17,615 bases of DNA from Erysipelotrichaceae bacterium (GTDB lineage: Bacteria; Bacillota_I; Bacilli_A; Erysipelotrichales; Erysipelotrichaceae), in assembly GCA_016302195.1 (NCBI GenBank), contig JAEDOA010000017.1:1-17615 (forward strand), written 5' to 3'. The translations under genes and the position numbers were made by a program. The notes under the pieces are model-generated. The model worked only from the letters and a program-made list of their open reading frames with translations. It was not told where the DNA came from and searched no databases. Each line of letters starts with the position of its first letter. Position 1 is the stretch's first letter. Positions 1,828-2,643 of this stretch are shown in pieces.

Positions 1828-2643
1828 ATGGATACTTCAGATTTAGCAAATAGAATGAAAGAATATGAAAAAAGAAATCAATATTATCTTCAAAAGAGAA
1901 CTCCAGTTGCCATAAGAGTAGATGGTCGTAGTTTTCATACTTTCACTAAAGGATTTAAGCGTCCTTTTGATGATGTGTTAATTAAAACAATGCAAGAAAC
2001 TGCAAAATATATGTGTGAAAATATTCAAGGTGCAAAATTTGCATATGTTCAGTCAGATGAAATTACAATTATTTTAGTAGATTATGATACTTTAGAAACT
2101 GATTGTTGGTTTAATTATAGAACAGATAAACTTTGTAGTATTGCGGCAAGTATGGCTACAATGATATTTAATAAAATCTTTAAGGAAAAGGTTGAAAATT
2201 TTATTGAAGAGGGAAGAGCGTTTAGCCTTGCTCAATTAAACTACAATCAAATGAAAATGGAGCCTTATTTAAAAGCAATTGAGAAGGGCGCAATGTTTGA
2301 TGCAAGATGTTTTAATATTCCAAAAGAGGAAGTAACAAATCTTATTTATTGGCGGCAGCTCGATGCAACCCGCAACTCAATTCAAATGGTTGGTCAGGCT
2401 AATTTTAGTCACAAAGAGCTTCAGAATAAGTCTTGTAATGATATTCAGGATATGCTTCATGAACAGAAGGGTATTAACTGGAATGATTATCCAACTGTTT
2501 ATAAAAGAGGTACTGCTATTATTAAAGTTGAAATGGAAAGTGAAAGAATAAATGCAACTGGTTGGATAATTGACAAAGAAATGCCAATTCTTAAAGGTGA
2601 GGATAGAGCATATGTTGATAATTTAGTTTATATAGGAGAATAA
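1828..2643 (+). CDS. Thg1-like protein (TLP), a tRNA-His guanylyltransferase-family 3'-5' nucleotidyltransferase
   Basis: RBS AAAGGAG. 'AIRVDGRSFHTF' matches the Thg1 'RLDGRNFHRF' motif carrying the first catalytic Asp. 'FAYVQSDEITIIL' matches the 'AYGQSDEYSFVF' motif with the Asp-Glu metal ligands. Further collinear similarity, e.g. 'YRTDKLCSIAASMATMIF' against 'RRASKFMTHVASQFAS'. Confidence 0.75.
   Translation: MDTSDLANRMKEYEKRNQYYLQKRTPVAIRVDGRSFHTFTKGFKRPFDDVLIKTMQETAKYMCENIQGAKFAYVQSDEITIILVDYDTLETDCWFNYRTDKLCSIAASMATMIFNKIFKEKVENFIEEGRAFSLAQLNYNQMKMEPYLKAIEKGAMFDARCFNIPKEEVTNLIYWRQLDATRNSIQMVGQANFSHKELQNKSCNDIQDMLHEQKGINWNDYPTVYKRGTAIIKVEMESERINATGWIIDKEMPILKGEDRAYVDNLVYIGE

Follow-up and report, generated by a model that had tools for sequence, protein, structure and literature searches.

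The best solved homolog of the protein considered here is the Thg1-like protein (TLP) of Bacillus thuringiensis (BtTLP, PDB 4KGK/4KGM), which is encoded on a bacterial chromosome. Enzymes of the BtTLP type repair 5′-truncated tRNAs of many kinds (PMC3701042; PMC4820378); for bacterial-type TLPs this 5′-end repair activity is known only in vitro. Thg1 was predicted to act in RNA repair, also in large DNA viruses, phage Thg1 was suggested to be RNA repair "aimed against host defenses", and its linkage to kinase and ligase genes was described, by Anantharaman, Iyer and Aravind in 2010 (PMC2904730) and by Iyer et al. in 2021. These papers report bacterial operons (Thg1/polynucleotide kinase/(Macro)/RNA ligase), in which the kinase would make the 5′-phosphate substrate, and sporadic occurrences of Thg1 in jumbo phages.

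Among phages, members of the same protein family (PHROG 4717) occur in Fusobacterium phage Fnu1 (gp147), Bacillus phages Eldridge, Bc431v3 and G, Mycobacterium Omegavirus and Pseudomonas phage 201phi2-1. In these genomes, too, the TLP gene lies among the accessory or nucleotide-metabolism genes of large phages, in some cases near polynucleotide kinase or tRNA genes. Fnu1 encodes a fused kinase-phosphoesterase-Rnl1-type ligase 14 kb from its TLP gene. An experimental study of any phage TLP was not found in our literature search. In phage T4, Pnkp and Rnl1 heal and seal tRNA cut by the PrrC anticodon nuclease; T4 has no TLP, and the break in the anticodon loop is repaired without nucleotide loss.

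Here, we analysed a window of 17,615 nucleotides in which an earlier note had read the ORF at 1828–2643 as a phage TLP accompanied by RNA ligase, 5′-kinase and phosphoesterase genes. The window has the same partner classes as the neighbourhoods of 2010 and 2021, and its lineage adds an Rnl5-type ligase and a metallophosphoesterase. Like T4, it carries a phage set of kinase, phosphoesterase and ligase, presumably restoring cleaved tRNAs. However, T4 uses an Rnl1-type ligase and a fused kinase-phosphatase, whereas the window has an Rnl5-type ligase, separate genes, and a phosphoesterase that is calcineurin-like rather than HAD. The module would work like the T4 heal-and-seal pathway, but by its protein families it is no member of it. 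With respect to the other PHROG 4717 phages, the clade of the window differs in an insertion at TLP residues 123–154, the Rnl5-type ligase, and separate kinase and phosphoesterase genes. The finding of a phage TLP is not novel in itself, since 161 GenBank phage records from many lineages contain a homolog, mostly annotated as tRNA-His guanylyltransferase, and both the repair or anti-defence idea and the linkage had been proposed in 2010 and 2021.

Identity of the ORF

The ORF (1828–2643, plus strand) comprises 271 codons with an ATG start and a TAA stop. A Shine–Dalgarno sequence AAGGAG was found at 1815–1820 (+), 7 nt before the ATG (upstream sequence AACTTTTTGGTAAAGGAGAATTAAA); the gene has a strong ribosome-binding site. 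The use of an alternative genetic code, an idea that came from an Absconditabacterales MAG bin, was rejected: TGA occurs three times as a stop codon, and under table 11 all ORFs read through intact.

The assignment of the 271-aa product as a TLP, already suggested in the earlier note, was borne out by Pfam, PHROG, alignment to BtTLP and fold matching. The protein matched Pfam Thg1 (PF04446) with E = 1.2e-31 and 109.7 bits (cutoff 29.2), residues 8–165 covering profile positions 2–130 of 130. It matched PHROG 4717 "tRNA-His guanylyltransferase" with E = 5.2e-89 and BtTLP (4KGK) with E = 3.7e-63 over residues 6–122 and 155–270. The second Pfam profile, Thg1C, gave 25.4 bits, marginally below its cutoff of 26.3. 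Nevertheless, residues 155–270 aligned to BtTLP 126–240 with 100.7 bits, including FDxR and WRQxDxxxN, and for this reason the protein is considered to have the C-terminal (Thg1C/fingers) domain. With these scores the family match is far above chance, and the product is a genuine member of the Thg1/TLP 3′-5′ polymerase superfamily, whose enzymes form homotetramers (dimers of dimers).

Matches to MaTLP (E = 1.2e-13) and to yeast, Candida and human Thg1 (5e-12 to 2e-8) were far poorer than that to BtTLP, which argues for the bacterial TLP type and not for the tRNA-His-specific Thg1 type. An AlphaFold model of the monomer, built from a shallow alignment (pLDDT 54), was used for the overall fold only. 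All of its top 32 fold matches were Thg1/TLP structures with BtTLP first, and they ranked in the same order as the sequence scores did.

BtTLP aligns with the window TLP from end to end and shows the same length class and two-domain layout. The main differences are approximately 27 extra residues in the window TLP at 123–154 (32 where BtTLP has 5), Arg45 for Lys43, Gln18 at the Arg16′ position, and the phage location of the gene. Eukaryotic Thg1 (yeast, human, Candida) has the same fold and two-metal chemistry, but the similarity is much weaker (E of 1e-8 to 1e-12), and the window TLP has DATRNSIQM where Candida Thg1 has DCHINNLYN.

Active site and substrate-contacting regions

Both catalytic signature segments pointed out in the earlier note are present (RVDG from residue 30, QSDE from residue 75), and the catalytic Asp and Glu positions align with those of characterized enzymes. 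D32 (codon 1921–1923, +), the first metal-binding carboxylate, lies in the RVDG motif and corresponds to D30 of BtTLP and D29 of hTHG1. In the SDE motif (S76-D77-E78, codons 2053–2061, +), D77 and E78 correspond to D75/E76 of BtTLP and D76/E77 of hTHG1. The alignment of these three residues with BtTLP, MaTLP and the yeast and Candida Thg1 proteins is ungapped. In BtTLP, D30, D75, E76 and R131 are essential or ligand-contacting residues, and the metal carboxylates of hTHG1 and BtTLP have been assigned (PMC3701042). Further residues shared with BtTLP (its numbering first) are H35/H37, D46/D48, R131/R160 and M158/M187.

D32, S76-D77-E78, F157-D158-x-R160, W175-R-Q-x-D and N183 were conserved in 22/22 aligned diverse TLPs, and the same motifs were invariant across 29 close homologs of 79–94% identity. 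This invariance of catalytic and substrate-contacting residues indicates that the TLP is under purifying selection for enzyme activity. Judging by these alignments, the active site is intact and the protein is predicted to be catalytically competent, from which we infer an active enzyme.

The activation-site lysine (K43 in BtTLP, K44 in Thg1) is replaced by Arg45 in the window TLP, with Lys44 adjacent; in relatives, this position is held by either K or R. This lysine positions ATP, and the K43A substitution in BtTLP lowers adenylylation approximately 10-fold but not guanylylation (PMC3701042). Since guanylylation is spared in that variant, the enzyme with Arg45 may still be active and differ in the NTP that it prefers.

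The segment WRQLDATRNSIQM aligned opposite WRQVDCHINNLYN of Candida Thg1, and the window TLP contains no HINNLYN-type segment, a motif known to be diagnostic of eukaryotic Thg1 as opposed to TLPs. Met187 aligns with M158 of BtTLP, where eukaryotes have Asn. Because this segment and the Asn are missing and the similarity to eukaryotic Thg1 is weak, we do not expect the window TLP to add G-1 specifically to tRNA-His in a non-templated manner.

Two regions of the protein are variable. The clade-specific insertion (approximately residues 123–154; 2194–2289, +) separates the palm helix from the FDxR strand. It is missing in BtTLP and the Bacillus-phage TLPs, varies in sequence among relatives, and is predicted to contain helices in the low-confidence model. 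The region equivalent to the TLP β-hairpin (2512–2574, +) was located from the alignment, the model and PMC4820378. Two strands were predicted at residues 229–249 with low model confidence, and this is the most length-variable part of the TLP family alignment. In MaTLP, the β-hairpin holds the tRNA at its elbow and gauges how long the acceptor stem is (PMC4820378).

Phage origin and neighbouring genes

Judged from its genes, the contig is phage-derived, in agreement with the earlier note. The window contains holin-like, CHAP/PG-binding endolysin, PhoH and homing endonuclease genes; tail-fibre genes lie beside the repair module in the related locus L014, and relatives were found in IMG/VR. The TLP gene belongs to the accessory (early/middle) region of a large low-G+C phage, and the lineage with the module comprises phages of roughly 100–175 kb from metagenomes. 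When the complete window was compared with GenBank phages by megablast, no match and hence no near-identical published phage was found. The GenBank phage homologs of the TLP showed 27.7–51.7% identity among the 40 matches listed, and the best cultured relative was only 45% identical.

Mosaicism is pronounced in this region: two alleles have recombined to give the TLP gene, positions 1208–1226 hold a scar left by the 5′ end of another TLP gene, and homing endonucleases are scattered around. A second, degraded TLP gene upstream was considered and rejected, only a 13-nt scar of the TLP 5′ end having been found. This mosaicism would suit a mobile "moron" that recombination has moved between phages and that has no role in RNA repair or acts on an unrelated substrate, e.g., nucleotide signalling molecules, as would the kinship of Thg1 with the palm domains of GGDEF proteins and CRISPR polymerases (PMC2904730). 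We consider such a cargo gene very improbable, given the residues invariant in the 29 close homologs and 22 diverse TLPs, the strong ribosome-binding site, and the maintenance of the family in the 161 phages of many lineages.

The ORF at 1225–1785, whose probable true start is ATG 1243, lies directly upstream of the TLP gene. It was rejected as a conserved partner: homologs were found only in L014–L016 and L026, and the upstream ORFs of other TLP loci are unrelated to it.

The ligase, kinase and phosphoesterase genes that the earlier note had placed alongside the TLP gene do exist, but they lie 6.4–9.1 kb downstream of it and are not adjacent. The gap before the ligase gene contains small ORFs, a free-standing homing-endonuclease-like gene (4011–4787, minus strand; PHROG 374/559/9084), its paralog (7407–8135, −), and between these a gene for an 808-aa MVP_shoulder/SPFH protein of higher GC (0.39; 4950–7376, +), which occupies the same position between the TLP and ligase genes in L017. 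Co-transcription of the TLP and ligase genes is unlikely in the window because of the 6.4 kb gap, the opposite-strand genes and a terminator hairpin at 7395–7422. A promoter scan gave no signal beyond the shuffled expectation.

The ATP-dependent RNA ligase (9072–10,310, +) has an N-terminal OB domain and a C-terminal nucleotidyltransferase domain (Pfam matches to PHA02142 OB and RNA_ligase). It aligned over both domains with NgrRnl (5COT, E = 3e-29, residues 5–62 and 190–409) and matched the DraRnl model TIGR02306 (RNA_lig_DRB0094) with 1e-24, below the equivalog cutoff. Based on these matches, the ligase is assigned to the Rnl5 (NgrRnl/DraRnl) type and not to Rnl1. Characterised Rnl5 ligases seal nicks in duplex RNA.

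The end of a 97-aa ORF (10,736–11,029, +) and the start of the kinase gene share an ATGA overlap, and both genes are conserved together in L002, L014 and L016. The P-loop kinase (11,026–11,544, +) matched AAA_33 (4e-17); its best solved matches in the PDB were the weak ones to T4 Pnk and Pnkp1 (E ~1e-3), and the kinase region of NCBIfam bacter_Pnkp matched with 9e-10, far below the equivalog cutoff. It is presumed to be an RNA 5′-kinase. The calcineurin-like metallophosphoesterase (Metallophos_2 in Pfam; 11,748–12,299, +) presumably heals 3′-phosphate or 2′,3′-cyclic phosphate ends. A gene for a PIN-PhoH (PhoH2-like) protein (13,209–14,459, +) comes after the repair genes, an order shared with L014 and L016; whether it is part of the repair module is uncertain.

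The linkage of the TLP gene to these genes recurs and is much tighter in relatives than in the window. In L014, L015 and L016, whose TLPs are 80% identical to that of the window, a stretch of about 1 kb with small ORFs separates the TLP gene from the genes for RNA ligase, kinase, phosphoesterase and PIN-PhoH, which follow in this order and are all co-directional; the same genes are present in L002 and L017. A ligase, kinase or phosphoesterase homolog was found within 10 kb in 11 of 16 non-redundant related loci, the Rnl5-type ligase in 8 and none of the three in 5; these are raw counts, with no correction for common descent. A Pnkp gene also lies two genes from the TLP gene of Mycobacterium phage Yeet, which is unrelated. 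The neighbourhoods of more distant relatives include PTH2, a CCA-adding-type PolyA_pol head domain and a "Swiss Army Knife RNA repair" HAD domain. In the Bacillus phages Eldridge and Bc431v3, no gene for RNA repair is annotated within 7 kb of the TLP homolog.

The type of the linked ligase also agrees with a reading in which the TLP fills, from the 5′-phosphate side, any gap in duplex RNA with a recessed 5′ end, not necessarily in tRNA, and the ligase seals the nick that is left. The extra insertion at residues 123–154 could be connected with such a role, and no region of the clade varies more than the hairpin used by MaTLP to measure the stem, which would permit other substrate geometries. 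Stem-directed defence nucleases do exist: retron Eco2 acts on double-stranded acceptor stems, PARIS on anticodon stems, and OLD amputates the anticodon arm. However, action on internal gaps has been shown for no TLP, several loci have the TLP gene without a ligase gene, and MaTLP positions its substrate via the tRNA elbow and acceptor end (PMC4820378). General gap filling therefore seems to us rather unlikely.

The tRNA genes near TLP genes bear on another reading, namely that the enzyme adds or restores the 5′ G-1 of phage or host tRNA-His for histidyl-tRNA synthetase, with no general repair. Many TLP-bearing phages have many tRNAs, and tRNA clusters adjoin the TLP genes of L003 and L011, but 0/14 of these adjoining tRNAs were tRNA-His. 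The window itself has no tRNA gene; neither tRNAs (ARAGORN) nor structured RNAs (Rfam at E ≤ 0.1) were found in it. Fnu1, the closest cultured phage, has tRNA-His among only 5 tRNAs, with A73 instead of the usual bacterial C73. Such an A73 could weaken the retention of G-1 by RNase P, yet the Fnu1 gene already has G at −1, and A73 would be a poor pairing partner for an enzyme that works from a template; this comparison is ambiguous. TLPs are able to add G-1 to tRNA-His through a second, anticodon-dependent binding mode (PMC4820378), whereas BtTLP-type enzymes prefer 5′-end repair on many tRNAs (PMC3701042). In addition, the HINNLYN-type segment is absent here, and the recurring kinase, phosphoesterase and ligase linkage would be left unexplained. 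Taken together, we give a dedicated tRNA-His function little probability.

It was also considered that phage tRNAs might need mitochondria-like 5′ editing. This was rejected: the acceptor stems of the 14 tRNAs in L003 and L011 are normally paired, with the exception of G-U wobbles and one initiator-like 1:72 mismatch.

Proposed function and its meaning

Based on the above results, we consider it probable that the phage TLP, with the linked kinase, phosphoesterase and ligase, rebuilds damaged tRNA 5′ ends as a heal-and-seal module. The presence of an additional templated 3′-5′ polymerase, unlike in T4, implies that the lesions repaired may be those with lost 5′ nucleotides. By homology with BtTLP and MaTLP, the TLP would bind a tRNA with a shortened 5′ strand of the acceptor stem. 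It would activate the 5′-monophosphate with ATP or GTP, or use a 5′-triphosphate, and add nucleotides in the 3′-5′ direction by Watson–Crick pairing to the 3′ strand as a template, halting once the acceptor stem is full length. The P-loop kinase would supply the 5′-phosphate needed by the TLP, the metallophosphoesterase would clear 3′-phosphate or cyclic phosphate ends, and the Rnl5-type ligase would seal duplex-RNA nicks. Acting together, these enzymes would repair tRNAs, or other structured RNAs, that suffer damage in the course of infection.

The substrate in vivo, joint action with the enzymes encoded nearby and a purpose in counter-defence are all inferred. The counter-defence role put forward in the earlier note is conjectural: our literature search found no defence or host nuclease known to remove tRNA 5′ nucleotides. 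Among the nucleases acting on the acceptor end that this search turned up, retron Eco2 makes its nick in the 3′ strand of the stem, and Cas12a3 and HEPN-MNT remove the CCA tail at the 3′ end; a TLP cannot rebuild that strand. PADLOC defence-system models gave no matches on the neighbouring genes.

It is possible, though we regard it as improbable, that double-stranded tRNA regions are mended by a templated "fill and seal" pathway made up of the TLP, the nick-sealing Rnl5-type ligase, the kinase and the phosphoesterase. A stem would be cut by a defence nuclease of the TOPRIM kind (such as retron Eco2, PARIS or OLD) or by a putative 5′-end nuclease and nibbled by an exonuclease, after which the TLP would refill it in the 3′-5′ direction and the ligase would close the nick. 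If true, this would be the first natural function for bacterial-type TLPs, and the pathway would be the RNA counterpart of DNA repair by gap filling.

With a TLP retained next to a kinase, a phosphoesterase and a duplex-nick ligase, this phage lineage offers a compact and testable route to the natural substrate of these enzymes. Furthermore, the module hints that some hosts may damage the base-paired ends of tRNAs and not the anticodon loops alone.

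Identity and active site of the Thg1-like protein

The gene for the Thg1-like protein (TLP) runs from ATG to TAA over 271 codons (1828–2643, plus strand) and has an AAGGAG ribosome-binding site 7 nt upstream of its start codon. Both signature segments quoted in the earlier note are present, RVDG from residue 30 and QSDE from residue 75. Of the two Pfam profiles named there, Thg1 (PF04446) matched the protein far above its gathering score (E = 1.2e-31; 109.7 bits against 29.2), whereas Thg1C reached 25.4 bits, slightly below the cutoff of 26.3. The latter score is no real deficit, since both halves of the protein (residues 6–122 and 155–270) align to 4KGK, the crystal structure of Bacillus thuringiensis TLP (BtTLP; E = 3.7e-63). 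The Thg1 identity is also backed by the phage family PHROG 4717, 'tRNA-His guanylyltransferase' (E = 5.2e-89). For an AlphaFold model of low confidence (pLDDT 54), the top 32 fold matches were all Thg1 or TLP structures, with BtTLP first.

In BtTLP, the metal-binding carboxylates are D30, D75 and E76 (D29, D76 and E77 in human Thg1), K43 places ATP, and H35 touches the ribose (PMC3701042). Based on the alignment, the carboxylates correspond to D32, D77 and E78 of the window protein, and BtTLP H35, D46, R131, K99 and M158 correspond to H37, D48, R160, K101 and M187. Arg45 stands at the place of K43, with Lys44 beside it, and the relatives alternate between Lys and Arg; R16 is replaced by Gln18. 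The earlier note had made its identification depend on a Thg1 profile match and on aligned catalytic Asp and Glu residues, and both were found. All 22 aligned sequences keep the carboxylates as well as the FDxR and WRQxDxxxN motifs; these residues are also without change in 29 close homologs (79–94% identity), a sign of purifying selection on catalysis. The idea that the gene is functionless cargo is contradicted by this invariant active site, and we regard it as very improbable.

In the TLP shared by three related loci (L014, L015 and L016; 80% identical to the window protein), residues 30–37 read RVDMRAGH in place of RVDGRSFH, with Met for Gly after the catalytic Asp and Gly for Phe; every catalytic carboxylate is retained.

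Similarity was highest to BtTLP (1e-63), followed by archaeal MaTLP (1e-13) and the yeast, Candida and human Thg1 proteins (5e-12 to 2e-8). The segment DATRNSIQM occupies the place of DCHINNLYN in Candida Thg1. Judged by its sequence, the enzyme is of the bacterial TLP type and not of the eukaryotic tRNA-His-specific type.

Insertion and mosaic structure of the gene

Residues 123–154 replace five residues of BtTLP, giving an insertion of about 27 residues. It is common to the metagenomic clade, where its sequence is variable; Fusobacterium phage Fnu1 has a shorter form, and BtTLP and the TLPs of Bacillus phages lack it. Residues ~229–249 are the counterpart of the MaTLP beta-hairpin, which contacts the tRNA elbow and gauges acceptor-stem length (PMC4820378); the length of this element varies strongly among relatives. 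The first 7 residues and the insertion resemble L014, while the remainder resembles another related locus, L017, a mosaic of alleles that points to recombination within the gene. Upstream, an 11-codon mini-ORF was found at 1208–1243 (MSVHDDWKVVK and a stop). Together with the AGATAAA in front of it, the initial 19 nt match the start of the L017-type allele (MVHDDLG...), both its ribosome-binding region and its 5′ end, with 13 of 13 positions identical over GTACATGATGATT. The mini-ORF is probably a recombination scar left by the swap-in of a module of ORF-1225 and the TLP gene.

Phage origin and linkage to RNA-repair genes

The window, an entire NCBI contig of 17,615 bp, encodes a holin-like membrane protein, an endolysin with CHAP and PG-binding domains, a PIN-PhoH protein, and GIY-YIG and HNH-type homing endonucleases. 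Relatives of the locus are IMG/VR viral contigs of 28–402 kb, and in L014 tail-fibre genes adjoin the shared gene block. The window is thus phage DNA, and the claim of a phage-encoded TLP is borne out; no near-identical phage is present in GenBank. Three further TLP relatives (L025, L026 and L027) lie on contigs of 140–176 kb that were assigned to Absconditabacterales, Acutalibacteraceae and Peptococcaceae MAGs, probably as mis-binned phage genomes, and the spread of these bins makes the host uncertain. The standard genetic code is used. The region 16178–17343 carries a DUF5662 protein (E = 2e-32), then a GIY-YIG/NUMOD3 homing endonuclease at the contig end.

The earlier note had placed the TLP alongside RNA ligase, 5′-kinase and phosphoesterase genes. 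All three exist, an RNA ligase (9072–10310; Pfam PHA02142 OB domain and RNA_ligase), an AAA_33 P-loop kinase (11026–11544) and a Metallophos_2 phosphoesterase (11748–12299), but they begin 6.4–9.1 kb downstream, so that "alongside" is a loose description here. Both domains of the ligase align to its closest solved homolog, Naegleria gruberi RNA ligase (5COT; E = 3e-29), and the protein also matches the Deinococcus DR_B0094 model; these matches assign it to the Rnl5 type. Characterised Rnl5-type ligases seal nicks in duplex RNA. The best solved matches of the kinase, T4 polynucleotide kinase and bacterial Pnkp1, are weak (E about 1e-3), and the kinase region of bacter_Pnkp gave 9e-10. The stop codon of a 97-aa ORF (10736–11029) shares an ATGA overlap with the start of the kinase gene. 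In L002, L014 and L016 the two genes are conserved together, and the ORF may encode a kinase partner. Directly after the ligase gene lies an 81-aa HPr-like (PTS phosphocarrier) ORF (10404–10649), found at the same position in L017 and unusual for a phage RNA-repair block.

The interval between the TLP and ligase genes holds small ORFs, a bidirectional terminator hairpin (7395–7422) and a gene for an 808-aa MVP-shoulder/SPFH-domain protein (4950–7376; GC 0.39 against 0.25–0.31 in its neighbours), which had no match among PHROG or PADLOC models. This gene is flanked by two paralogous, free-standing homing-endonuclease-like genes on the minus strand (4011–4787 and 7407–8135; PHROG HNH/homing endonuclease, weak DUF2726), which do not occur at the corresponding places in L017. 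In three other loci (L008, L017 and L026) it is again found no more than 10 kb from the TLP gene, and a short SPFH/prohibitin gene lies three genes past the TLP gene of Fnu1 (L001, 13389–14198). L017 has the order TLP, ADP-ribosylglycohydrolase, HD_4 hydrolase, MVP-shoulder gene, phosphoesterase, ligase and HPr-like gene, with the ADP-ribosylglycohydrolase and the HD_4 (RelA/SpoT-type) hydrolase at 4161–6453. The interval looks like a variable accessory island, possibly one for anti-defence.

In relatives, the linkage is much tighter. In L014, L015 and L016 the TLP gene is followed on the same strand, after about 1 kb of small ORFs, by genes for RNA ligase, kinase, phosphoesterase, PIN-PhoH and lysin; in L002 (65% identical TLP) this set lies 3–5 kb downstream. 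These homologs served to build small profile HMMs, and near-duplicate loci were removed; of the remaining 16 loci, 11 showed a ligase, kinase or phosphoesterase no more than 10 kb from the TLP gene and 8 an Rnl5-type ligase, counts that ignore shared ancestry and so describe a recurring association, not statistical proof. Around eight more distant TLP loci, 102 ORFs were screened with Pfam; they included PTH2 peptidyl-tRNA hydrolase (2 ORFs), a PolyA_pol head domain of the CCA-adding type and a HAD domain named 'Swiss Army Knife RNA repair'. L003 and L011 have tRNA clusters adjoining the TLP gene. Among phages outside the clade, Mycobacterium phage Yeet carries a Pnkp gene two genes from its TLP gene, and Bacillus phages Eldridge and Bc431v3 have no annotated repair gene within 7 kb. 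Fnu1 encodes a fused kinase–metallophosphoesterase–Rnl1-type ligase (gp169) beside a 5-tRNA cluster, 14 kb from its TLP gene.

Proposed function and place among phage TLPs

Based on the biochemistry and structures of homologs (PMC3701042, PMC4820378), we suggest the following pathway. A TLP tetramer would bind tRNA at the acceptor end and elbow, activate a 5′-monophosphate with ATP or GTP or take a 5′-triphosphate, and add nucleotides 3′–5′ opposite the 3′ strand until the stem is complete. The linked kinase would supply the 5′-phosphate, the phosphoesterase would free ends of 3′-phosphate or cyclic phosphate, and nicks would be closed by the ligase. It is rather likely that the window TLP repairs 5′ ends of tRNA or structured RNA within such a phage heal-and-seal module. 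A broader gap-filling role, in which the TLP and the nick-sealing ligase would mend tRNA stems by templated 'fill and seal', is conceivable at a low probability.

The database name implies a dedicated G-1 function on tRNA-His, which we consider unlikely. In its favour, TLPs have a dual binding mode (PMC4820378), and the tRNA-His heading the Fnu1 cluster (L024, 4894–4968; CCA encoded) has A rather than C at discriminator 73; however, that gene already encodes G-1, no tRNA-His was found near any TLP locus examined, the window enzyme is of BtTLP type, and the repair-gene linkage would be left unexplained.

The earlier note further proposed that 5′-end repair counters a host defence, a role that is conjectural; the literature searched contained no defence or toxin stripping tRNA 5′ nucleotides. 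Among the systems directed at the acceptor end, retron Eco2 nicks the 3′ strand of the stem at a distance of 6–7 nt from the CCA end, and HEPN-MNT and Cas12a3 cut off the CCA tail. Prokaryotic Schlafen targets the T-loop, and for most of the remaining systems the cut falls in anticodon loops or stems. Such lesions are no TLP substrate as such, because the template is the intact 3′ strand, and the postulated host attack is thus hypothetical.

TLP genes are frequent in phages and have been annotated before. Homologs were found by tblastn in 161 GenBank phage records (155 near full length), most labelled tRNA-His guanylyltransferase, from phages of Bacillus, Caulobacter, Mycobacterium, Erwinia, Vibrio, Aeromonas, Burkholderia and Fusobacterium and from Prevotella Lak phages; in the protein database, at least 8,000 relatives reach E ≤ 1e-10. 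Thg1–polynucleotide kinase–(Macro)–RNA ligase neighbourhoods were described by Anantharaman, Iyer and Aravind (2010), and Iyer et al. (2021) listed Thg1 among jumbo-phage RNA-repair enzymes restoring 5′ nucleotides; no experimental study of a phage TLP was found in the literature searched. To this the locus adds modestly a well-conserved, compact block of TLP, Rnl5-type ligase, kinase and metallophosphoesterase genes, belonging to an uncultured phage lineage of roughly 100–175 kb with a clade-specific TLP insertion.
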